Of a stretch of 64,000 nt of DNA, positions 23,131 through 53,415 are shown piece after piece. The notes under the pieces are model-generated. The model did not search any database. It saw nothing but the letters and a program-made list of their open reading frames with translations, and was not told the DNA's origin. Made by a program: the position numbers and the translations under genes. Where the stretch lies: positions 1,016 through 65,015 of the forward strand of contig CAIWCT010000110.1 in assembly GCA_903911225.1 (NCBI GenBank). Reading direction: 5' to 3'. This DNA is from an uncultured delta proteobacterium. Lineage in GTDB: Bacteria > Desulfobacterota > WTBG01 > CAIYCZ01 > CAIRTM01. Position 1 is the first letter of the stretch, and the number at the start of each line of letters is the position of its first letter.

Positions 23131-23189
23131 AATAGGGGCTCCTTTATTCATGATGTACGTAAATCGTCGAAACAAATCGTCATCAGGGG

Positions 23190-25049
23190 CTAGTATTTCC
23201 CGAACTCCCTGTCGTCCAGATAAATCACCGGATCGGGGCTTTGGTTTCCAGCCGTTGCTCCGCCCCAATGCGCTGCAGTACTTGTTCGAGCAGGGGCTTG
23301 TACCAGCTCCTTCCCGGGTTTCAGCATCAGGTTGCTGCCTGCTGACTGATGGGGGACATCGACTTTACTGCATGCTATTTTTTTTTCCAGCTTAAATGTG
23401 TTCACTAATTGCTGCAATACAATGGACTGGCTCGACAGCTCCTCAGCGGCCGCTGCACTTTCCTCGGCATGGGCAGTATTCTGCTGCGTTACCTGAGCCA
23501 CTTGTCCAAGTCCCTGCGTAATCTGACTCACGCCTTGAGCCTGCTCATTGGAAGCAGCCGCAATCTCGGCAACAAGGTCAGTCATCTTACCCGCAGAGGC
23601 AACTATCTCGCTCAATGCCGCTGCCGTTTTATCAGCAATCTGTGTGCCGTCACCTACCCTTTTCACGGAGCCCTCGATCAGATCTGCTGTCTCCCGGGCG
23701 GCTTTGGCGCTACGTGCGGCAAGATTTCTCACCTCTTCGGCCACTACAGCAAAACCCTTACCATACTTGCCGGCCCGTGCAGCCTCAACCGCAGCGTTTA
23801 GTGCCAGCAAATTGGTTTGAAAGGCTATTTCGTCAATAACTTTAATTATTCTAGAAATGCTGCGGCTTGACTCGTTTATCTCCCGCATGCCCGTTACCAT
23901 CTGGATCATTTGCGTATTACCCTTTTCAGCAAATGTTTTTGTTTCACCGGCAAGAATATTTGCCTGCGTTGCATTCTCTGCAGTCAACCTGGTCTGCGAG
24001 GCAATCTCGTTCATGGAGCTTGAAATCTCCTCAAGAGAGCTTGCCTGCTCGGTTGCTCCCTGGCTCATGGCCTGGCTTGTCGAACTCATCTGTCCAGCCC
24101 CAGACGCTACATAGTTTGCCGATATATTGATTTCAGTCATTGTTGCGGAAATTTTTTCAATCATATGCTGCAGTGCCTGCCCAAGTGAATCCCTCTCAGA
24201 GAGAACCTGCACTTTTATACTCAGATCGCCTTCGGCAATGCGTTGCGCAACATGAACGGCGCTTTTCATATTTGACGTCATTGTTCTCATAAAGTCGGCA
24301 AGCATGCCGGCCTCATCTTTTTGTCGTATATCAATATCGACATTTAGATCACCGACAGCCATGGATTTAATCATTTCAACCACCTTCATAATAGGACGGG
24401 TTATGCTTAGAGTGATGACAGTCCCAAGTACAATAGCAAGCACTAACCCTGCAAACACTTCCATAAGCATTATCCATGAAATACTCTGAGCAGTTGATCT
24501 GATTCCCTCAATCCCCTTTTCGAGCCGTAGGGCGCCCTCTTCGGATAAATGTTTCACCATTGCTTCAATTTTTTGGGTCTCATTTTTGTATGCCTCAATT
24601 GCGTTGTTTGCATCTTCAGCTGAGGCAAGAGTGCCGGTCTGAATCTGGCTGTAAACCATATTAAAGCCTTCTGCGTATATGGTAAAATTATCTTTTATTG
24701 CTTTAATGCTATCCTTATCATTTTGAGTTAATCCTGCTTTTTCAAGATCAGTCAGTCTGGTTAAGAAAAGCTCGCGCAAATCATTCCATTTTCTGAAATA
24801 CTCTGCACACTTTTCAGCAGAAGAAATGTTTATAAAAATTTCTTTTTCGATCCGTCGAAGTCCGGCAACATCAGCCAGCGCACCGGCAGCCTGCCGTTCA
24901 ATTTCGCCGTTTGTCTGTTGGAAATCAATTACTCTATACACAATTGATCCAACTCCCCATGAGCCTGCTCCAAAAACCAGCAGAAGCACAAAAACAAGTA
25001 AGCCAAAGCTTATTGCCAGGCGTAAGCCGATTTTCATATTTTTAATCAT
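23190..25049 (-). CDS. Methyl-accepting chemotaxis protein (small four-helix-bundle-type periplasmic domain)
   Basis: TM, a periplasmic helical domain of about 170 aa, TM, HAMP and the conserved MCP signalling domain. Confidence 0.9.
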
Positions 25050-29841: not shown

Positions 29842-31152
29842 TTATGCTTTAAAAACCTTTTCATGCGCAAGTCTGTAAACATTGCGCGTATCTAAAATAA
29901 GCTGTGCGTTAGCAAGTATTTCATCATATGCAAAAGAGCTGTGATCTGTTACCACAATAACCAGATCATAAGATGCTATGGCTGCCGGGCTGTAAACAAT
30001 TGAGCGAAGCTTCATGCCGGGAAAGTGGCGATGCGGCCCGGTTTCAGGGATAAACGGATCATAATAGTCAACAAGCGCGCCCTGTTTGACAATAAGCTCA
30101 TGAAGGGTAAGTGCCGGACTTTCCCGCACGTCATCAATGTCCTTTTTATATGCCACGCCCAGCAGCAGGATGCGGCTTCCGCGCAGTGACTTGTTATGCT
30201 GGTTAAGCGCTGCGCCCGCCTTTTGAACCACAAAGTACGGCTGCTGAGTATTGATCTCACCAGCGAGTTCGATGAAGCGGGTTGTAAACTCGTACTCTTT
30301 TGCCTTCCAGGTAAGATAGTACGGATCTATGGGAATGCAGTGCCCTCCGAGCCCGGGGCCGGGATAAAAAGCCTGAAACCCGAATGGTTTGCTTTTTGCC
30401 GCGTCAATAACCTCCCAGACATTTATGCCCATGCGGTCAAAGAGCATTTTTAATTCATTGACCATGGCGATATTGACCGCGCGGTAGGTGTTTTCAAGTA
30501 TCTTTGACGCCTCGGCTACTTTTGGTGTAGAAACCCTGACGGTTGTCACAATTTCGCGATACAGGCAGTCGACAACCTCAAGGCAGTCCGGCGTCACACC
30601 GCTGACGATCTTGGGAATCGTACCGGTTGAAAAATCCTTATTGCCCGGATCTTCCCGCTCTGGAGAGTAACCGAGATAATAGTCCACACCGACCTTCAGG
30701 CCCGTTGCTTCCAGAATTGGCATCATATCATCCTCTGTCGTTCCAGGATAAGTGGAGCTTTCAAGTACAACTACATGCCCGGTGCGTAAATGCTGAGCAA
30801 TACTGCGGGTGGAATTAAGAACATACGACAGGTCGGGGTTTCGGTGCTTGCCTAGAGGGGTCGGCACGCACACAAGTATATAGTCGACGTCGGCAAGCCT
30901 TGCAAAATCCGAGGTGGCAGTAAGTTTTTTAGTTTCCAGAACGTGTTTTTTTAAAAAATCATCTTGAATATGCTTAATATAACTTTGTCCGGTTTTAAGC
31001 ATTTCAACCTTATTAAGGTCAACATCAAAACCGCATACTTTAAAACCTTCTTTAAGAAATTCTCGCGCAAGAGGCAAACCAACGTAGCCAAGTCCGATTA
31101 TGCCAATCACAGCCTCGCGGGCAACAACTTTACTGCACAGTTTGTTTTTCAT
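29842..31152 (-). CDS. Nucleotide-sugar dehydrogenase (UDP-N-acetylglucosamine/mannosamine dehydrogenase-like, WbpA/TviB family)
   Basis: N-terminal Rossmann IGIIGLGYVGLPLAREF, a catalytic Cys region (GGHCIPIDP), 436 aa. Confidence 0.8.
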   Translation of the reverse strand: MKNKLCSKVVAREAVIGIIGLGYVGLPLAREFLKEGFKVCGFDVDLNKVEMLKTGQSYIKHIQDDFLKKHVLETKKLTATSDFARLADVDYILVCVPTPLGKHRNPDLSYVLNSTRSIAQHLRTGHVVVLESSTYPGTTEDDMMPILEATGLKVGVDYYLGYSPEREDPGNKDFSTGTIPKIVSGVTPDCLEVVDCLYREIVTTVRVSTPKVAEASKILENTYRAVNIAMVNELKMLFDRMGINVWEVIDAAKSKPFGFQAFYPGPGLGGHCIPIDPYYLTWKAKEYEFTTRFIELAGEINTQQPYFVVQKAGAALNQHNKSLRGSRILLLGVAYKKDIDDVRESPALTLHELIVKQGALVDYYDPFIPETGPHRHFPGMKLRSIVYSPAAIASYDLVIVVTDHSSFAYDEILANAQLILDTRNVYRLAHEKVFKA

Positions 31153-31281
31153 AGCACCCCCTGAAGTTAATTGAAATTATACACCATTGAATTGTGCTTT
31201 TAACACATTCCGAGCCTCCTGTCATCAATATCGCAACTTAAATTAACAGGCGGGAATGATCTTGTTTTGCGAGCAAACTTG

Positions 31282-31434
31282 TTGACGAAAAAAATACACT
31301 GTGATAAATTTTTATATATATAAAAGTTTCCTAGTCTGCCTTATGCAGACCGATAAGGTTGAGCGCGGCTCAGCCCGCCATGTTGCGAAGGAAGCCTGAA
31401 GGTGATTTGCGCCTTCAGGCTTTTTTTATTTTTT
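31282..31434 (+). promoter_or_regulatory. Sigma70-type promoter plus a leader RNA of about 118 nt ending in a strong intrinsic terminator, directly upstream of fdhA
   Basis: The -35 is TTGACG (31282-31287), followed by a 17-nt spacer and -10 TAAATT (31305-31310). The leader contains the hairpins gtctgccttatgcagac and tgagcgcggctca. It ends in an 11-bp stem aagcctgaagg/ccttcaggctt (31392-31422) followed by TTTTTTTATTTTTT. The fdhA RBS and ATG lie 38 nt after the U-tract. Confidence 0.5.
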
Positions 31435-31471
31435 ATCCAGCAATTTTTTATAACACAAGGAGGACTCAAGG

Positions 31472-34400
31472 ATGAACATCACGCGAAGGGGATTTCTTAA
31501 AATCTCCGGGGGAGCGGTGGCCGCCGGCAGCCTCGGGCTGAACCTCTCAGAGGTCAAAGCAAGTGCCGCAACAACCAAGATAACATCAGCCAAGGAAACG
31601 ACAACCGTATGCCCGTACTGCTCAGTCGGGTGCAGCATTATCGTGCACACTCAGAACGGCAAAGTGGTTAATACCGAAGGCGATCCTGATTCTCCAATAA
31701 ACCAGGGTAGCCTGTGCAGCAAGGGCATGTCGGTATACCAACTTACCCATGTTAACCCGGACCGCCTGACCAAGCCCCTCTACCGCGCTCCCAAAAGTGA
31801 CAAGTGGGAAGAAAAATCATGGGAGTGGACGCTCGAAAAAATCGCAAATAATATAAAAAAGAGCCGGGATGAAAGCTTCAAGCAAACAAATACCAAAGGC
31901 GAAATTGTTAACCGTACGGAAGCCATTGCTTCTGTTGGCAGCGCCGCCATGGATAATGAAGAGTGTTTTATATATCAAAAATTTCTCAGGAGCCTGGGAC
32001 TCGTCTACATCGAGCACCAGGCACGGATATGACACTCCGCAACTGTAGCGGCTCTGGCAGAGTCGTTTGGACGCGGTGCAATGACCAATCACTGGATCGA
32101 TTTCCGCAACAGTGACTGTATTCTTGTTATGGGCAGCAACCCTGCCTGCAACCATCCTGTTTCTTTCAAGTGGATTCAAAAAGCAATTGATAAAGGCGGT
32201 AAGCTCGTGTGCGTCGACCCACGGTTCACGCAGACAGCGGCCAAGTCAAGCCTCTATGCCCCGTTGCGTTCTGGCTCTGACATTGCCTTTCTTGGGGGCA
32301 TGATAAAATACATTCTCGAAAACAACCTTTTTTTTGAAGACTATGTCAGGCAGTACACAAATGCCACCTACCTTGTAAACCCTGCTTTCAAGCTGCCCGG
32401 CGACAATGACGGCGTCTTCTCCGGCCTTACCGGTACAAAAACTAAAGAAGGGTATGTAAGCGGCAAGTACGACAGGTCGACCTGGTCTTTCCAGATGAAC
32501 GAGGACGGCACCGCAAAAAAAGATCCAACTATGCAAGATCCCAACTGTGCCTTTCAGCTCTTGAAAAAGCATTTCAGCCGCTACACAGTTGAAAAGGTCG
32601 TTGAAATCACTGGAACACCCAAAGACAAGCTTCTAGCGGTTTATCAGGCATATGCCGTAACAGGCAAGCCTGACAAGGCAGGCACGATTCTCTATGCCAT
32701 GGGTTGGACACAGCATACCGTAGGAGTTCAGAATATTCGTGCTATGTCCATTATCCAGCTGTTGCTGGGCAATATGGGTGTTGCCGGAGGCGGCGTGAAT
32801 GCGCTGCGCGGTGAGGCAAACGTACAGGGTTCAACCGATCACGGCCTGCTGTTTCACATTCTGCCGGGCTATCTTAAAGCCCCGGCAGCATCCATGCCTA
32901 CCCTTGCAGACTACAATGAAAAGAATACGCCAAAAACAAAAGAACCGAAAAGCGCCAACTGGTGGGGCAATACGCCCAAGTACTCGGCAAGTCTGCTGCG
33001 CTCGTTTTACGGCGCGGAAGTACCGCTTGATGCTGCCTATGGCTATCTCCCGAAAATTGATGATGGCGCTAATTACTCCTGGCTGACCATTTTTGACAAG
33101 ATGTACAAAGGTCAGTTCAGTGGCTTTTTTGCCTGGGGTCAGAACCCGGCATGCTCGGGTGCTAATGCCAACAAAGTGCGGCAGGCCCTTGCCAAGCTCA
33201 AGTGGATGGTCAATGTAAATCTCTTCCCAAATGAAACCGGTGATTTCTGGAATGGCCCTGGCATGAACCCGGCAAAGATCGATACAGAGGTCTTCATGCT
33301 TCCCTGCGCGGCATCTATGGAAAAGGAAGGCAGCATTTCTAACAGTGGCCGTTGGATGCAGTGGCGTTACAAGGCGACCAATGCGCCCGGAGAGGCCATG
33401 CCCGACGGTGAAATAATTTCTGAGCTGTTTCGCAAGGTGCGCGAACTCTACGAAAAGGACGGCGGACCTGTCTCCGATCCCATTTTAAAGCTCAGCTGGG
33501 ATTACGGCAAATCATTTGATGCGCATACTGTTGCCAAGGAAATTAACGGCTATTTCCTTGAGGACAAAGAAATCGATGGCAAACTCTACAAGAAGGGATC
33601 CCTTGTGCCCGCGTTTAAATTTCTGCAGGCCGACGGCTCTACCTCATCGGGTTGTTGGGTATACTGTGGCTCCTATACCGCCGACGGAAATAAAGCCGCA
33701 AAACGCGGGAAGGATGACCCGACAGGTATCGGCCAGTACTCGAATTGGGCATGGGCCTGGCCGGTCAATCGCAGAATCATCTATAACCGTGCTTCGGTTG
33801 ATATCAGCGGTAAACCCTATGCCCCTGACAAGCCGGTAATTTCATGGGACGGCACGGCATGGAAGGGCGATGTGCCTGATGGGCCGTGGCCTCCGCTTGC
33901 GTCAGAAACTGATGGCAAACTGCCTTTTATCATGAAGCCCGACGGCGTTGCCAGCATCTTCGGCCCCGGCCTTGCAGACGGCCCCTTCCCTGAGCACTAT
34001 GAACCTCTCGAGTGTCCAATAGAAAAGAACCCAATGTCCCCGCAGTTCGTCAACCCGACGGTCAAACGCTGGGAAAATGATGGCGTACCTGAACTGGACA
34101 AACGTGCCTCCTGCGATCCACGCTTTCCCATTGTCTGCACGACGTACCGCGTCAGCGAGCACTGGCAGACCGGTGTGATGACGCGCTGGACGCCGTGGCT
34201 GCTTGAGTTGCAACCAGAAATGTTTGTGGAGATGAGTCGAGAGTTAGCAGAGCTCAAGGGCTTTAAAAACGGCGAACGCGTTATGGTGAAATCAGCCCGT
34301 GGCGAAGTCAATGCCGTTGCTATCGTGACGCCCCGCTTTAAGCCTTTTACGATTGCAGGACAGATCGTGCATGAGGTTGGCATACCGTGGCACTATGGCT

Positions 34401-34534
34401 GGCGTTACCCAAACCCTGATAAGAAAGAACTCCGCAGCGCCAATCTGCTGACCCCGAGCATCGGTGACCCTAACACCATGATACCCGAATCAAAAGCCTT
34501 CATGGTGGACGTTATCAGGAAGGAGGGCAAATAA
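31472..34534 (+). CDS. fdhA: Formate dehydrogenase alpha subunit, Tat-exported and selenocysteine-containing (in-frame TGA at 32030-32032)
   Basis: The Tat signal is MNITRRGFLKISGGAVAAG. The FeS-binding motif is CPYCSVGCS. ORF 31472-32032 and ORF 32081-34534 are in the same frame (both start at positions of form 3k+2). The separating TGA sits in the canonical motif ...QARI-U-HSATVAALAESFGRGAM. The remainder is a molybdopterin oxidoreductase. Confidence 0.9.
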
Positions 34535-35325
34535 TGAATGAAAAAATAATGCTGGTTGACCTGTCGAAATGCACTGCCTGCCGCTCCTGTCAGGTGGCGT
34601 GTAAAAACTGGAACGGCCTGCCTGCGGTGCCGACTATTAACCGCGGCACCTACCAGAATCCACCTGATCTTAACGCGCAAACCTATACCCTGATACGATT
34701 TCAGGAAATTGAGGCCAAAGACGGCGCCATCAAGTGGTTGTTCCGCAATGACAAATGCTTTCACTGCACAGATGCAGGCTGCATGAAAGCGTGCCCTGTG
34801 CCCGGCTGTATCACCAGAACAGAATCGGGCGCAGTAGTTCTTGACAGCACGAAATGCATCGGCTGCAAGTATTGCTACCATGCCTGCCCGTTTTCGGTAC
34901 CGCAGTTTGATGCTGCAACGGAGAAAATGTACAAGTGCCACTGGTGCCATGATCGCCAGGCAGAAGGCAGAATACCGGCCTGTGCGAAAGCCTGCCCGAC
35001 TGGAACAATCCAATTTGGCGACAAAGATGCCATGATAACGCTTGCCGGCAAACGAGCTAAAGAGCTTGGCGGCGATGCCAGCGTCTATGGCGAAAAGCAC
35101 CTTGATGGCACCCATGTGGTATACGTGCTAACTGAAAAGCCGGAAGTATATGAAAAACTGCCGGTTAATCCGAAAATATCCCCGTTAATTTTTCTGTGGA
35201 AGGATGTGCTCAAACCATTTTCAATGCTGAGTTTCCTTGGCGGTTTAGGCGCATGCGCTCTCTACTATTTGATCAAAGGTCCCAAGCGGCCAAAGTTTGA
35301 AGAAGGAGGTGAAAAGCATGAGTAG
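34534..35325 (+). CDS. fdhB: Formate dehydrogenase iron-sulfur subunit (FdnH/FdhB-like, with C-terminal membrane anchor)
   Basis: Four ferredoxin-type cysteine clusters (CTACRSCQVAC, CFHCTDAGCMKACP, CIGCKYCYHACP, CHWCHD...CAKACP) and a C-terminal hydrophobic helix. A TAATG junction couples it to fdhA. Confidence 0.85.
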   Translation: MNEKIMLVDLSKCTACRSCQVACKNWNGLPAVPTINRGTYQNPPDLNAQTYTLIRFQEIEAKDGAIKWLFRNDKCFHCTDAGCMKACPVPGCITRTESGAVVLDSTKCIGCKYCYHACPFSVPQFDAATEKMYKCHWCHDRQAEGRIPACAKACPTGTIQFGDKDAMITLAGKRAKELGGDASVYGEKHLDGTHVVYVLTEKPEVYEKLPVNPKISPLIFLWKDVLKPFSMLSFLGGLGACALYYLIKGPKRPKFEEGGEKHE

Positions 35326-35962
35326 CACGGTAAAAAATTCAAACTATGAGCTTATAGATGTAACGACACCGTTTGAGCGGCTGGTGCACCTTGCTTTTGC
35401 CGGGAGTTGCATCATGCTGTTCATTTCGGGCTTTGCTTTAATGTTTCATACTTTAAGCTTTATCAGCACTGTATTTGGAGGGCTTTACGTCACCAAGTAT
35501 GTTCATAACTTTTCGGGCCTTTTGTTTGCGGTAAGCGGACTTTTTGCCGTGGTTATCTGGTTTAAAGAAGGTGCAATTTTTGACGCTGATGATATCAAGT
35601 GGTTCATGAAGGGCGGTGGCTATCTCTGGACAAAAGAAGGCATCCCTCCGCAGGGCAGATTCAATGCGGGTCAGAAGATGTATTTTGTGTTGAAAGCCTC
35701 TACCTGGGCCCTCATGTCCGTCACGGGCATCATCATGTGGTTTCCCTATTTTTTCGGTAAAGAAATCACCATCTTCTGCTATCCTCTGCACGCCCTTGGT
35801 GTTGCAAGCCTGGCTGGTGCAGTTGTTGTTCACGGGTTTCTCGGCTCCCTTGGCAACCCGGGCACTATTCAGGCAATGATAACAGGGAAATGCACCAGAG
35901 CCTGGGCAAAGTTGCAGCATGCCAAGTGGCTTAAGGAATATGACGAAAAACACAGTAAGTAA
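35318..35962 (+). CDS. fdhC: Formate dehydrogenase cytochrome b (gamma) subunit
   Basis: Four predicted TM helices with conserved His residues (HLAFAG, HTLSF, HALGV, VVHGFLG). The gene overlaps the fdhB stop by 8 nt and is preceded by a GAAGGAGG RBS. Confidence 0.75.
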   Translation: MSSTVKNSNYELIDVTTPFERLVHLAFAGSCIMLFISGFALMFHTLSFISTVFGGLYVTKYVHNFSGLLFAVSGLFAVVIWFKEGAIFDADDIKWFMKGGGYLWTKEGIPPQGRFNAGQKMYFVLKASTWALMSVTGIIMWFPYFFGKEITIFCYPLHALGVASLAGAVVVHGFLGSLGNPGTIQAMITGKCTRAWAKLQHAKWLKEYDEKHSK

Positions 35963-35984
35963 AGTAAGCTAGACCAGAAAAAAA

Positions 35985-36016
35985 AGGACTGCCGAAATTC
36001 GGCAGTCCTTTTTTTT
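35985..36016 (+). terminator. Intrinsic terminator after fdhABC
   Basis: Stem aggactgccg/cggcagtcct with loop aaatt, followed by eight T; an A-run sits on the other side. Confidence 0.75.
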
Positions 36017-36488
36017 CTGACACATTGAACACATTCTTGTTTTGAACCATCAGAACTATTTGTTGCGGGGAAATTCACCTTTCTCAAAATTAAAATTTAC
36101 CATTAAATTTTAATTGACTTTTTGATGCCCATACATTAAAAATTAGTACACTAAATATTCTCGAGCTGCTGCTCCTGTAACCTTATGTCATGGAGCTTCA
36201 GCCGATAGGGTGGAAGCCGAAAGGCTACCGCCTCCTTGGTTTGGAAAGAGGATAAAGATTCACGTATCGAGCAGCGTTTTAGACTGCCCTGCACGCATGG
36301 AAAATCCGAATCTGATATCCCGTACCTTCAATCCTGAAGGAGTAGACAGCTTATACTCAATCCAGGCCAAATCTAAGCGCAAGACAGGCATACCCATGCA
36401 GCTTTCGTTGCTGCATGAAGGCTGCTGTTACACATAGTATCAGGGCTGTACATACACTGGTCAACAGATGAACCAGAAAGGAGAATGC

Positions 36489-37673
36489 ATGGGCAGACAA
36501 AAGGATAAAAGCTACCAGAGCACGGTCAGCAGGCAATACCGCCAGCTGATGGAACAGTGCAAAATCAATCTCGACAAAATGGAGCAGGAACTTCCCCCAC
36601 CGCGTGATGATTTGAAGGATACCCTTAAAGAACGGGGTGTAAGCCGTCGTGATTTCCTTAAGTGGGCTTCACTGACGACATCAGCGCTCATGCTTCCGCC
36701 AATGTTCAAGCCCTTAGTGGCTCGGGCTGCTGAAAACTTTAGCCGCCTGCCAGTAGTGTGGCTGCACTTTGCCGAATGTACGGGCTGCAGCGAGGCGCTG
36801 CTGCGCTCCACATACCCGAATGTTGATGACATACTGCTTGATACAATATCTCTGGAATACCACGAAACCATAATGGCTGCAGCAGGCTATCAGGCAGAGG
36901 CATGCCTTGAAAAGGCACTTCATGATTTTCCGGGCAAATTCATCTGCGTTGTCGAAGGCGCCATACCAATGGGTCTTGATGGCCATTACCTTACCCTTGG
37001 CCCTAAAGGGAAAACCGGCCTTGAAGTAGCAAAAGAAGTCACATCCAAGGCCGCGGTAACTATCTGCATCGGCAGCTGCTCCTGCTTCGGCAATGTACCG
37101 GCAGCCAAGCCCAACCCGACCGACTGCCTCGGCGTAGGGGATGCTCTTGGCATTAAAACGATTAATATTGCAGGTTGTCCTCCAAACCCTGTTAATTTTG
37201 TCGGAACGCTGCTCCACTACCTTATGTTCGGTGCCCTGCCCCCCTGCGATTCTTTGGGTAGACCAGTGTGGGCTTATGGTAAACGCATTCATGATTACTG
37301 CGAGCGCAGGCCTCACTACGATGCAGGCGAGTATGTTGAAGAATGGGGCGATGACGGCGCAAAGAAGGGCTGGTGTCTGTACAAAATGGGCTGCAAAGGC
37401 CCCTACACATTCGCCAACTGTGCAAAAGTACGCTTTAACGCAGGCGTATCCTGGCCGGTAATGGCAGGCCACGGCTGCATCGGCTGCACCGAACCGGCCT
37501 TCTGGGACAGCATGGCACCACTAGAAAAGCCCATTGCCGAGAAAAACGTCATTGGCGGTGAAGTTACCGTGGATAAGGCCGGGGCAGCACTTCTCGGTGT
37601 GACGCTAGCCGGTATGGCAGCTCACGGCGTCATTTCGGCTATCAAAGGCCACAAACCAGAGAATCATGACTGA
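36489..37673 (+). CDS. [NiFe] hydrogenase small subunit, Tat-exported
   Basis: Twin-arginine GVSRRDFLKW. The small-subunit cysteine ligand motifs are HFAECTGCSE, GSCSCFG, CPPNP and GCIGCTEP. The start was chosen at ATG 36489 after AAGGAG; the later Met at 36579 is an alternative. Confidence 0.9.
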   Translation: MGRQKDKSYQSTVSRQYRQLMEQCKINLDKMEQELPPPRDDLKDTLKERGVSRRDFLKWASLTTSALMLPPMFKPLVARAAENFSRLPVVWLHFAECTGCSEALLRSTYPNVDDILLDTISLEYHETIMAAAGYQAEACLEKALHDFPGKFICVVEGAIPMGLDGHYLTLGPKGKTGLEVAKEVTSKAAVTICIGSCSCFGNVPAAKPNPTDCLGVGDALGIKTINIAGCPPNPVNFVGTLLHYLMFGALPPCDSLGRPVWAYGKRIHDYCERRPHYDAGEYVEEWGDDGAKKGWCLYKMGCKGPYTFANCAKVRFNAGVSWPVMAGHGCIGCTEPAFWDSMAPLEKPIAEKNVIGGEVTVDKAGAALLGVTLAGMAAHGVISAIKGHKPENHD

Positions 37674-50703: not shown

Positions 50704-50815
50704 ATCCTGTCCTCCTTATATTGGAGTATCGACAGAACCATTACTTGACTTGAACTTTGATATATGAAAAATTAAGTCATCACCATAACAATACTTGACA
50801 CGGAAAAGATATCTC

Positions 50816-51829
50816 ATGAAACTGCATGATAAAATTCTTCTTGAACACGGCGGTGGCGGCCAATTAACCGGTGAGCTGATAGAGCAGGTATTTCTGCCGC
50901 GATTGGGTAATCCACATCTCATGCAACTCACCGACAGCGCACTTGTGGCTATTGGCGATCAACGAATCTGTTTTACTACCGATTCCTACGTGGTTAGCCC
51001 CCTGTTCTTTCCGGGAGGCGATATCGGCTCGCTTGCCGTTCATGGAACGGTCAATGACCTTGCGGTCTGCGGCGCACAGCCTCTGTTTTTAAGCGCCGGC
51101 TTCATCATCGAGGAGGGATTTGCAACGGCACAGCTTGAACAGATCGTTGATTCAATGGCCTCTGCTGCCGCACTGGCTGGCGTACAGGTTGTCACGGGAG
51201 ACACCAAGGTTGTCCCCCACGGTGCTACCGACGGCCTCTATATAACGACTTCAGGCATAGGTCGGTTTGTATACGATAAACCATTGTCTCCCTCCACCAT
51301 CAGGCCCGGTGACGCTGTTATTGTAAACGGCCCTGTGGGCGACCATGGCGCTGCCATACTATGCGCGCGGCAGGATCTTGGATTTTTATCAACGGTGCTA
51401 TCCGATTCCGCGCCACTGGGTAGCCTTGTACGGAATATTTTAAATGCTAGCCCGCACATTCACTGCATGCGCGATGCAACGCGAGGGGGGCTTGGGGCTG
51501 TGCTTGCGGAAATAGCGCAGCAGTCGGGCCACGATATTTTCGCTCGGGAAAACGACATCCCGTTGCGGGAAAGCGTACGGGGGATCTGCGAAATGCTGGG
51601 GTTTGACCCCCTTTACCTCGCTAATGAAGGAAAACTGGTTGTCTTTTGCGCAGCTGACGATGCCCCGGCAGTGCTTGCTGCCATGCATAGCCATGAGTTG
51701 GGCCATGAGGCAACCCGTATTGGAACTGTCCAGGAATCGGGCCGCGGACGTGTCGTGCTCACTACCCTAATCGGCGGAGAACGTGTTATTGATCGCCCTA
51801 CGGGTGAGCTGGTGCCGAGAATATGCTGA
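50816..51829 (+). CDS. hypE: Hydrogenase maturation factor HypE
   Basis: AIR-synthase-like fold (LEHGGGG...DAATR) ending in the diagnostic C-terminal ...ELVPRIC. Confidence 0.9.
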   Translation: MKLHDKILLEHGGGGQLTGELIEQVFLPRLGNPHLMQLTDSALVAIGDQRICFTTDSYVVSPLFFPGGDIGSLAVHGTVNDLAVCGAQPLFLSAGFIIEEGFATAQLEQIVDSMASAAALAGVQVVTGDTKVVPHGATDGLYITTSGIGRFVYDKPLSPSTIRPGDAVIVNGPVGDHGAAILCARQDLGFLSTVLSDSAPLGSLVRNILNASPHIHCMRDATRGGLGAVLAEIAQQSGHDIFARENDIPLRESVRGICEMLGFDPLYLANEGKLVVFCAADDAPAVLAAMHSHELGHEATRIGTVQESGRGRVVLTTLIGGERVIDRPTGELVPRIC

Positions 51830-51907: not shown

Positions 51908-52498
51908 CTAAAACTTAATCACCTTTCCAGCAGATGTCATGGCCTCAAGAATTTCCAGGGCATTTGAGATCGTACCAACTTGCACGTTTTCCCTTATTTT
52001 ATAAAAATTAAGGCATGTCCCGCAGATTAAAATTGTAAAGCCTTTTTTCTCAAGATCCTGAAGAACTTCAAGCATATAAGATCCGGAAGTAGCCAGCCGC
52101 ACTGCCTTGCTAATAAAAACGATTACACAATTTTTGTTTTGAAGATTCTGCATTGCGGACAGAAACCCGTTCATAAGAACCTTACCCAGTTCCATATTCG
52201 AACCGATATGATCAGCGTCAAACAGGTAGGCAATATTTTGCGTGTTAGACGGTGCCGCAGCGCAGGCTGGGCTTGCAGCATCCTTTTTGATCAGCAACTC
52301 GAAAATATTCTCGCCCTTGTCGATAACGCTAACAGTGCAGCCCTGTCCCGCCGCAAACCGCAAGATGTTTTCCCGGGCTGTATCATTATCTACAAGAACT
52401 GTTATTTCGCCGTGATTAAATCCTTCAAGCGCCTGTTTGGTAAGTACAACGGGCTGCGGACAGGCAAGACCTTTTGCATCAATATGTGTGTGTTTCAT
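51908..52498 (-). CDS. yedF: YedF-like selenium-metabolism protein (TusA-like N-domain fused to a DsrE-like domain)
   Basis: The N-terminal TusA motif is IDAKGLACPQPVVLTKQAL, followed by a C-terminal DsrE/DsrF-like redox-carrier fold of about 120 aa. The start was set at Met 52498, which overlaps the upstream stop (TAATG). Confidence 0.7.
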   Translation of the reverse strand: MKHTHIDAKGLACPQPVVLTKQALEGFNHGEITVLVDNDTARENILRFAAGQGCTVSVIDKGENIFELLIKKDAASPACAAAPSNTQNIAYLFDADHIGSNMELGKVLMNGFLSAMQNLQNKNCVIVFISKAVRLATSGSYMLEVLQDLEKKGFTILICGTCLNFYKIRENVQVGTISNALEILEAMTSAGKVIKF

Positions 52499-53415
52499 TA
52501 CGGTTGAACTCCTTGAAAAATAAACTCGTTCTGTTGTGTTGAACAACAATCATGTTCAGACAGTACGCGGTTGAGGGCATCAGGTATGCGTGCAATGATT
52601 TCGTGAATCTGTGTTGCAGGGGTAGGCTGTGCAAGCAGGCCTGCCATGCGGTTGGCCCTGCATGCTGTAGCACATGCATCGGGGATGGCATATCCGTGAT
52701 GGACAAGTGCAGCCGCCATGCCCGTCACCGTGTCGCCAGTGCCCCCGATGGGCTCCAACTCCTCAACAACAGGCTCATCAACCTGCTGGATGACCGCACC
52801 CTCATGGCAGATATAATCAGTGCGCCCCTTAACGCAAAGATATCGGGCAGCGTTGCCGAAAGAGTGGGTTTTTTTAATCAGTTCTGCCGGCTCTGCTTCA
52901 AGACGTGTTAGAAACCCGCGGGTATAGGCCGGGTGCGAAGCTTTTTCATCTGCCAGAAAAGCAAGCTCACCAATATCGGGCAGGAAAAGATCGTAAAATG
53001 GCGCTTGCCCGCTTGCCTTTGCCACATACATGAAACCGGCATCTGCTATCATAACAGGCTTTGCCTGCATTTTGCGCACTGCAGTGAGCACCTGGTTATG
53101 AAGCCCAATGTCTGGGATTATATAGTGCAGGCAAAGCGTATCAGCATGTGTCTTGGGTAAATGTTTGATTAAATAACGGTAGACCTCCCGGCTGCCTTCG
53201 CGTGTGCCGATATCGCCTCCGATTATGCACTCAGGTGCAGTGTCGCCTAAAAAATCCGCAGTGGCGCACACAGCGCCGATCATGGCAGCTGTTCCCCGAT
53301 TGAGCGAAAAGCTGCGGCCGTCGATGATAATGGAGGTTCCCTGCAGCTGCGCAGTGCCGACAGCCAGCGATAAATTCTGATCAGGTATTGTTCCGGCCAG
53401 CAGCATCGTTTTCAT
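52498..53415 (-). CDS. Ribokinase-superfamily protein related to the YjeF C-terminal domain (ADP/ATP-dependent NAD(P)HX dehydratase-like)
   Basis: The C-terminal motif PIGGTGDTVTGMAAALV matches the GGxGDVLxG motif of YjeF_C/ThiM-type kinases. Upstream are CVKGRTDYI (versus VLKGAGTVV) and PDIGELAFL (versus PHPGEAARL). ATGA couples it to the upstream gene. Confidence 0.5.
   Translation of the reverse strand: MKTMLLAGTIPDQNLSLAVGTAQLQGTSIIIDGRSFSLNRGTAAMIGAVCATADFLGDTAPECIIGGDIGTREGSREVYRYLIKHLPKTHADTLCLHYIIPDIGLHNQVLTAVRKMQAKPVMIADAGFMYVAKASGQAPFYDLFLPDIGELAFLADEKASHPAYTRGFLTRLEAEPAELIKKTHSFGNAARYLCVKGRTDYICHEGAVIQQVDEPVVEELEPIGGTGDTVTGMAAALVHHGYAIPDACATACRANRMAGLLAQPTPATQIHEIIARIPDALNRVLSEHDCCSTQQNEFIFQGVQP

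Follow-up and report, generated by a model that had tools for sequence, protein, structure and literature searches.

The question raised by this locus is whether the short leader ahead of a formate dehydrogenase gene is a cofactor-sensing RNA and, if so, how it is related to the described RNAs of this kind. The DNA analysed (the window) is the whole 64,000-nucleotide (nt) stretch of contig CAIWCT010000110.1 from an uncultured delta proteobacterium, and the leader lies directly upstream of fdhA, the gene of a formate dehydrogenase (FDH) catalytic subunit. The original prediction, made from the letters of this DNA, described a promoter, hairpins and a strong intrinsic terminator before the start codon and proposed an attenuating riboswitch or a separate small RNA (sRNA), possibly responsive to a cofactor or a metal. 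On balance the comparative and folding analyses point to a working ligand-responsive ON switch, that is a miniaturised relative of the molybdenum cofactor (Moco) and tungsten cofactor (Tuco) riboswitches, which would control fdhA by anti-termination.

The analysis is based on the comparison of the window leader with four diverged homologous leaders from metagenome contigs (loci L144, L143, L149 and L146, the last truncated at its 5' end). The search for the same leader in relatives, which had been suggested as a check of the original prediction, thus succeeded: all four homologues stand before fdhA and carry compensatory changes.

Structure of the Leader RNA

Folding of 31315-31475 resulted in a minimum free energy (MFE) of -54.7 kcal/mol (z = -4.39; 0 of 200 shuffles as stable), with hairpins at 31334-31350, 31357-31375 and 31376-31387 and a long terminator hairpin after them, so that the predicted leader with three hairpins is borne out by the fold. 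The elements of the leader are the following.

31282-31310, plus strand: sigma-70-type promoter from the consensus scan, with -35 hexamer TTGACG (31282-31287), 17-nt spacer and -10 hexamer TAAATT (31305-31310)
31326-31331, plus strand: P1 5' strand GUUUCC, extendable to A31324 and U31332, present in the aptamer-only MFE of four lineages and aligned to Moco P1 by covariance models (CMs)
31334-31350, plus strand: P2, GUCUGC-CUUAU-GCAGAC, a plain hairpin without internal bulge in the fold
31351-31356, plus strand: junction J2/4, CGAUAA, identical in all five sequences and aligned with CGAU or CGAUA in canonical relatives
31357-31375, plus strand: P4, GGUUGAGC-GCG-GCUCAGCC, folding as an 8-bp stem with a 3-nt loop
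31376-31389, plus strand: P5 mini-hairpin CGC-CAUGUU-GCG followed by AA, the counterpart of Moco CC-CgUauUU-GG-AAA
31390-31395, plus strand: P1 3' strand GGAAGC, which in constraint folding doubles as the 5' base of the terminator stem
31387-31427, plus strand: intrinsic terminator, 18 pairs in the scan, hairpin energy -26.9 kcal/mol

The promoter elements are present where the original prediction had placed them, with 9 of 12 consensus matches and an extended -10 TG at 31302-31303; taken alone such a match is not above chance (5 sites against 3.4 expected in the 3 kb scanned). The elements TTGAC(N), TGn, and TAnnTn also occur in L144, L143, and L149 with unchanged spacing to the RNA motif, and the combination of promoter, hairpins, and terminator rises above chance because it is kept in four diverged lineages. 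Transcription would start at about 31317.

The terminator has a G+C-rich core of 11 bp, joining G31394-G31404 with C31410-C31420 around the loop AUUUG, and the stem continues by A/G-U pairs down to G31387. The U-tract consists of U7 (31421-31427), A, and U6, the last being a second T6 run at 31429-31434; the two runs end 44 and 37 nt before the ATG at 31472, in agreement with the GC-rich 11-bp stem and U-tract that had been described near the fdhA start codon.

Conservation and Covariation of the Leader

Protein look-ups revealed six contigs with an identical leader (L137-L142). Among the diverged homologues, a large part of FdhA is 96% identical to the window protein in L144 and 83% in L146, the contig of which begins inside the motif, while the available N-terminal fragment of FdhA is 93% identical in L143 and 78% in L149, where the small motif occupies 2656-2735. 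The RNA core (31326-31395) shows 91% identity to L144 and 87% to L143, compared with 76% and 67%, respectively, at the third-codon positions of fdhA and with 70-72% in the intergenic DNA on either side of the core in the window-L144 comparison. The motif is kept even where the N-terminal fragment of FdhA is only 78-80% identical and third-codon identity is down to about 52%.

In the alignment of the leaders (A6) 92% of the cells are paired, against 24-49% when the partners are slid. Eight pairs have changes on both sides, five of them in P2 (5 of its 7 pairs), two in P4, and one in outer P1, and none of 500 shuffles equalled this number; one P4 pair changes from U-G to C-G. The P2 stem of L149 is GCCUUUUU/AAAAAGGC. 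The P4 loops of the five sequences are GCG, GUG, GCG, AGG, and, in L146, a loop of 8 nt.

In all lineages the small motif is situated directly upstream of a selenocysteine (Sec) fdhA gene and on the same strand, with about 100 nt between the terminator and the start codon in L146. The neighbour on its upstream side varies, being UDP-glucose dehydrogenase in the window and L144 and a Moco RNA with a helix-turn-helix (HTH) domain gene in L149.

Several searches delimit the distribution of the motif. The leader was absent from 80 fdhA loci of the genome collection in a scan with the FdhA N-terminus (at most 74% identity), where the nearest FdhA relatives were among Syntrophales metagenome-assembled genomes (MAGs), and a metagenome scan with the FdhA signal-peptide region gave no close relatives among the matches listed. 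As to taxonomy, a homologue search with GlnRS led to generic labels, the nearest named match being 'Proteobacteria bacterium' (89%), followed by 'Desulfobacterota bacterium' (75%). Comparison of the leader with 143 fdhA loci by blastn and nhmmer returned close relatives only, and the motif is absent from L147 and L148 (FdhA 82% identical) and from L081 (N-terminal FdhA fragment 81% identical). Searches of 149 loci (about 0.9 Mb) and of the whole window with two CMs of the leader, R1 (four leaders) and R2, revealed no further small-type members.

Relationship with the Moco Riboswitch

The Rfam/Infernal scan suggested for checking the original prediction turned out negative for the Moco riboswitch family RF01055, which did not match the leader at the gathering score or at E <= 10. 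When the whole window was scanned, no Rfam family reached its gathering score on the leader, and RF01055, with a gathering threshold of 36 bits, gave no match on the leaders of L143, L144, L146, and L149. The best Rfam matches at E <= 10, namely the trpB motif (25 bits against a cut-off of 59), Thr leader, HrrF, and microRNAs, cover the terminator hairpin only and were rejected.

The leader models and a model of canonical RNAs find each other's members. R1 matched L004:2864-2962 over its full length and in register with 29.2 bits and a rough E-value of 1.8e-5 in 508 kb, and on the same segment RF01055 scores 83 bits. With filters off, the best five matches of R2 in 13 loci (75 kb) were all RF01055 sites, with rough E-values of 2.4e-5 to 0.2, and 9 of the 13 RF01055 sites were recovered; in a further 209 kb the only other matches at E < 0.05 (L136 and L117) were RF01055 sites as well. 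Conversely, the model R3, built of 15 canonical P3-less Moco RNAs from related organisms, ranked the four full-length leaders right below four true positives, with the background beginning from 11 bits: L143 scored 24.3 bits (E = 1.4e-4), the window 18.9 bits (0.005), L144 18.1 bits (0.008), and L149 17.9 bits (0.009), these E-values being rough too. In both directions helix is paired with helix; the R3 alignments drop the distal 21-26 nt of P2, which hold CUAA...AUG, and leave 3 nt of the 8-nt P4 cap.

The likeness extends to the details of the fold. The leader and Moco RNAs have the same helix order P1, P2, P4, and P5 around one junction, share the strings UCCGAG, CGAU(A), GCC, and UUG..AAGGA, and are located upstream of a gene for a molybdenum or tungsten cofactor enzyme, and terminator-type expression platforms are known in the Moco family. 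The P1 5' strand matches CuCC of the Moco consensus, and the next UA (GA in L143 and L149) leads to UCCGAG, to be compared with Moco CuCCGAGC; in the alignment the leader has (U)UCC-GAG after this strand, where RF01055 has CuCCGAGC. Between P2 and P4 the leader has CGAUAA and the canonical copy of the window GCC-G-A-UA-GGG. In both RNAs GCC and a P5 of 2-3 bp follow P4, and purines precede the P1 3' strand, while the P5 loop of L146, CGUAUUU, is the Moco consensus loop itself. Of the conserved Moco junction nucleotides (CuCCGAGC, GCC, AGGG, CCUCCC, and UUGGAAAGGaG) the leader core keeps (U)CCGAG, G(A/G)CCGAU, the GG opening P4, GCC, and UUG..AAGGA.

The differences in the core are systematic. 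In all five sequences CCUCCC is altered to CCCGCC, UGG to UGC, GGAG to GGAAG, and AGGG to AAGG; in terms of helices, P5 has GC/GC in place of CC/GG and P1 has UUCC/GGAA in place of CUCC/GGAG, and J2/4 is longer by one A. The leader is about 70 nt long compared with about 105-135 nt for Moco RNAs; its P2 is an uninterrupted hairpin of 6-9 bp without the bulge that holds the tetraloop receptor in Moco RNAs, and its P4 is closed by a loop of 3 nt (8 nt in L146) instead of a GAAA or GCAA tetraloop. P3 is lacking, as in the known P3-less ("Tuco") subclass of Moco RNAs. In the study of Regulski et al. (2008, PMC2408646) Moco RNAs were described with a P4 capped by a GNRA tetraloop and a P2 bulge that holds the tetraloop receptor; among 176 representatives all but five had GAAA, the six without the receptor still had a GNRA tetraloop, and 58 were without P3, a class that correlates with tungsten-cofactor metabolism.

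By the criteria of Rfam the leader is no member of RF01055; it is a reduced relative. Its kinship with Moco RNA, as judged from the sequence and fold comparisons above, is considered highly probable. Of the sensing functions proposed originally, the Moco/Tuco one is supported by this comparative evidence, and a pure metal-ion sensor is less well supported.

Canonical Moco RNAs in the Same and Related Genomes

In many related fdhA genes a canonical Moco riboswitch is located directly upstream, in the same place as the small leader. Canonical Moco RNAs also occur in the same genomes as the small form, at 36147-36267 of the window, L144:7019-7139, L149:2233-2354, and L149:401-521, with RF01055 scores of 68-80 bits. 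They share with the leader the organisms, the fold family, and the general metabolic theme; unlike the reduced fdhA leader they are full-size and retain the GAAA tetraloop together with its receptor. The genes after them are different too: in the window clade they stand before a NiFe hydrogenase operon and in L149 before genes of unknown kind. Because the canonical copies co-occur with it, the small leader cannot be taken just as the form that the standard Moco RNA has in this clade.

In the canonical fdhA leaders of relatives about half of the MFE structures pair the Shine-Dalgarno GGAG with the CUCC of the P1 5' strand. This pairing would fit translational ON control in those leaders and is suggestive only.

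Several additional observations concern the canonical copies. The window copy (36147-36267, RF01055 70.5 bits) is of the P3-less type and has its own promoter-like site at 36114-36143. The NiFe hydrogenase operon begins about 200 nt after it and comprises the small subunit (from 36468), the large subunit, cytochrome b, a HycI-like protease, hypD, hypB, and hypF; the same arrangement is kept in L144 (7019-7139) and L145 (4441-4561). The hydrogenase is not a Moco enzyme and is not mentioned in the 2008 Moco paper (PMC2408646). In L149 both canonical RNAs (401-521 and 2233-2354; 74.9 and 80 bits) are on the minus strand, opposite to the small motif and within 2.3 kb and 400 nt of it, so that three Moco-type RNAs are found in 2.4 kb; the copy at 2233-2354 is followed by a terminator and stands upstream of a gene for a 424-aa protein with weak HTH_23/HTH_28 matches. 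In a Geobacteraceae MAG a tRNA-Sec gene (L079:2572-2665; RF01852, 75 bits) directly precedes a Moco riboswitch (2769-2892) and a Sec-fdhA gene.

Elsewhere in the window R3 gave a weak match of 11.2 bits (E = 0.72) on the minus strand at 23134-23244, which has CCGAUCC...GGACGAC-AGGG...GGAAA...AAAGGAG and overlaps long open reading frames (ORFs); it is probably a chance match.

The Smithella-type fdhA loci (L005, L006, L009-L016, L022, L024-L030, L032, and L035) have a different arrangement. They share a perfect palindrome TTATGTCA-N4-TGACATAA about 270 nt upstream of fdhA, followed by a TTGACAAC promoter and a conserved leader of about 170 nt. No Rfam family reached the gathering score on these leaders in the 13 loci scanned, and no small-motif model matched them; the palindrome may be an operator which, together with the leader, forms a separate system as yet undescribed.

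Terminator and Proposed Switch Mechanism

In all five sequences the terminator directly abuts P1, with hairpin energies of -21 to -42 kcal/mol. The terminator stems show no sequence relationship (GCCUGAAGGUG in the window and, with another top, in L144 and L143; GGCCCCGGACAAAGAGC in L146; CCCGCAGCAA in L149), and despite this turnover the stem base holds the P1 3' strand (GGAAGCC or GGAGGCC) in every lineage. In the window the segment G31390-C31395 has two alternative partners, G31326-C31331 in P1 and G31419-U31424 in the terminator. When the transcript is ended after the P1 3' strand (aptamer only), its MFE structure is the P1-P2-P4-P5 junction in 4 of 4 full-length lineages, and the MFE of the full-length leader is in these four lineages the complete terminator with P1 open. 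Enforcing P1 by constraint folding costs 4.1-7.4 kcal/mol in the four lineages; the 2-4 G-C pairs nearest the U-tract are then lost, and the hairpin that remains is 2-4 nt or more away from this tract.

In intrinsic termination the closure of the stem base beside the U-tract is the critical step, so that a ligand-stabilised P1 should give read-through (ON). The opposite OFF design is disfavoured because the aptamer is invariant, the terminator arms vary, and no other conserved complementarity exists between them: inspection by eye and of the MFE structures revealed no conserved alternative pairing of an antiterminator type with the terminator 5' arm. Likewise, no consistent complementarity was found for a P2-P4 loop pairing in place of the tetraloop-receptor contact.

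According to the scheme that we infer from these features as to ligand binding, ligand identity, switch direction, and transcription start, the aptamer would fold before the terminator during transcription. The P1 3' strand GGAAGC serves as the 5' base of the terminator too, so that P1 cannot be paired at the same time as the lowest G-C pairs of the terminator stem. With the ligand bound, presumably a molybdopterin-type cofactor (Moco, Tuco, or a derivative), P1 would be held, the terminator base could not close, and the polymerase would read into fdhA, fdhB, and the cytochrome b gene; with no ligand the P1 3' strand would become part of the complete terminator, and the polymerase would release an RNA of about 110 nt. 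Control of this ON type makes sense for an enzyme that is of no use when its cofactor is missing.

The pbuE/ydhL adenine riboswitch is a known ON-type transcriptional switch with a P1 3' strand in common with the terminator. The proposed scheme is similar to it in that a ligand-held P1 competes with the terminator, the aptamer folds before the terminator 3' arm is made, and the presence of ligand favours the gene. It differs in that sequence and ligand are unrelated and in that much of the 3' half of the pbuE aptamer enters the terminator, compared with the stem base only in the leader.

Several points weigh against the ligand-responsive switch. The comparison has a basis of five distinct sequences from one narrow uncultured clade, one of them 5'-truncated; the helices were picked with the Moco architecture known, which biases the alignment-based counts; and P1 and P5, being nearly invariant, rest on analogy and energy and not on covariation. 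RF01055 fails to match even at E <= 10, with 501 nt and 115 nt searched, and the E-values of the CMs come from a short calibration. Both the GNRA tetraloop and its receptor are missing, so that the ligand pocket may not form. Finally, P1 and the core stem overlap over a short distance (2 G-C pairs in the window, 3-4 in the other lineages), and with P1 formed a residual hairpin of 9 bp stays 2 nt from the U-tract, which makes read-through plausible and not assured. With these points taken into account, a working switch is still slightly favoured.

Alternative Explanations

The best surviving alternative is a Moco-derived RNA which has lost ligand binding and acts as a constitutive attenuator or as one modulated by a protein or sRNA, the junction serving either as a protein site (e.g., for a cofactor carrier or a factor of FDH maturation) or as a signal for pausing or partial termination by which the level of fdh expression is set. 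The loss of tetraloop, receptor, and P3, the changed core bases (CCUCCC to CCCGCC; P5 GG to GC; CUCC/GGAG to UUCC/GGAA), the failure of RF01055, and the terminated form as full-length MFE in all lineages are in line with it. However, the junction strands, which line the pocket in riboswitches, are the most conserved parts and the helices covary; moreover, the P1/terminator overlap survives complete terminator turnover, which is the signature of a switch and not of a fixed terminator, and no conserved candidate partner gene is adjacent, the upstream neighbours being different. This explanation is considered rather unlikely.

The ligand-responsive switch has also to be compared with an independent trans-acting sRNA of about 110 nt, which would have its own promoter and terminator and be merely located upstream of fdhA. 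The discrete promoter and the strong terminator (hairpin of -26.9 kcal/mol, U7), the short RNA as the product in the predicted ground state, and the distance from terminator to start codon in L146 are what such an RNA would show. Yet in all lineages the element keeps the same strand and the position directly before fdhA despite different neighbours on its upstream side, it has homology with the aptamer of a riboswitch that acts in cis, and no conserved single-stranded seed region is found outside the junction. In addition, the consensus scan of the window revealed no second promoter-like site after the terminator and before the ATG, and because of this fdhA appears to depend on read-through. 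An independent sRNA is therefore improbable. Of the two forms named in the original prediction, the riboswitch is the one backed by covariation, junction, reciprocal CM matches, and the P1/terminator overlap, and the separate small RNA is less well supported.

It is very improbable that the leader is without present function, either as what is left of a canonical Moco riboswitch in decay or as hairpins that arose by chance. The full-size Moco RNAs at the same position in relatives, which the leader resembles minus peripheral parts, could suggest decay, but the core has changed far less than the synonymous sites and the intergenic DNA beside it, compensatory changes are present, the fold has a z-score of -4.4, and the element is kept where the N-terminal fragment of FdhA is only 78-80% identical and third-codon identity is down to about 52%.

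A ribosome-mediated attenuator with a leader peptide is scarcely credible: an ATG-initiated ORF of 18 codons (31343-31399, MQTDKVERGSARHVAKEA) does span the hairpins and end inside the terminator 5' arm, but it has no Shine-Dalgarno sequence before it and no run of regulatory codons, and the idea was rejected as L144 and L143 lack this ATG, their P2 loop having CUUCGG instead.

Downstream Operon and Neighbouring Genes

The genes around the leader and the translation signals of fdhA are arranged as follows.

29842-31152, minus strand: UDP-glucose dehydrogenase, the divergent upstream neighbour of the leader
31459-31463 and 31472-31474, plus strand: Shine-Dalgarno GGAGG and the fdhA start codon ATG (sequence and ORF list)
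31472-34534, plus strand: fdhA/fdnG, the downstream gene of the leader, with twin-arginine translocation (TAT) signal and Fe4S4 and molybdopterin domains (Pfam)
34534-35325, plus strand: fdhB, the 4Fe-4S subunit, after fdhA
35297-35962, plus strand: cytochrome b gene, after fdhB

The spacer between fdhA and the divergent UDP-glucose dehydrogenase gene is 320 nt long, and since this gene is divergent, the terminator serves no upstream gene. The fdhA product is the catalytic subunit of a formate dehydrogenase with a molybdenum or tungsten bis-pyranopterin guanine dinucleotide (Mo/W-bis-PGD) centre and a TAT signal, and translation across the in-frame TGA (32030-32032) identifies this codon as selenocysteine in the motif ARI-U-HSATVAAL. 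The fdhA-fdhB-cytochrome b operon thus encodes a selenocysteine-containing enzyme of the FDH-N (fdnGHI) type.

Next to the promoter a palindrome TTTGC-GA-GCAAA (31266-31277) adjoins the -35 hexamer; L144 keeps part of it (TTTAGC-G-TGCAAA), it is not evident in L149, and it may be a transcription-factor site. At the end of the operon, after the cytochrome b gene, the segment 35977-36018 contains a hairpin with T8 (GGACTGCCG-AAATT-CGGCAGTCC-TTTTTTTT) preceded by A8, and given this A8 it is possibly a bidirectional terminator; it was not among the results of a terminator scan of 35800-36600. Farther downstream an AIR-synthase-family gene (SelD- or HypE-like) at 50795-51829 adjoins a TusA/DsrE-domain gene at 51908-52549, minus strand, and this pair of genes, not far from the Sec-FDH and hydrogenase clusters, may have a part in the handling of selenium or sulfur.

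Significance

To our knowledge, direct ligand binding has not been shown for the Moco riboswitch and no structure of it has been solved. In the literature searched no later description of a minimal Moco variant was found. In the same literature the Moco riboswitch rests on genetic evidence, according to which gene control depends on cofactor synthesis (PMC2408646). A functional fdhA leader would show that P3, the tetraloop, and the receptor are dispensable in the Moco fold, and it would provide a shorter construct for biochemistry and structure determination. For annotation practice the result means that an Rfam-based approach misses real relatives of the Moco RNA class.

A more tentative and rather doubtful extension is that the small aptamer, in genomes which contain standard P3-less ("Tuco-type") Moco riboswitches as well, forms a separate specificity class, in which the fixed core changes would read another form of the pterin cofactor (e.g., Mo versus W, or the mature bis-guanine-dinucleotide form that formate dehydrogenase uses). 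If this were true, it would be the smallest Moco-type aptamer (about 70 nt), without tetraloop-receptor docking and tractable for structural and biochemical proof of ligand binding, and one cell would contain two cofactor sensors with different outputs.

In summary, if the leader is functional, its co-occurrence with canonical Moco RNAs in one genome would give a handle on the discrimination between Moco and Tuco, and the selenocysteine formate dehydrogenase of these uncultured anaerobes would be under a clear ON-type control by cofactor availability.

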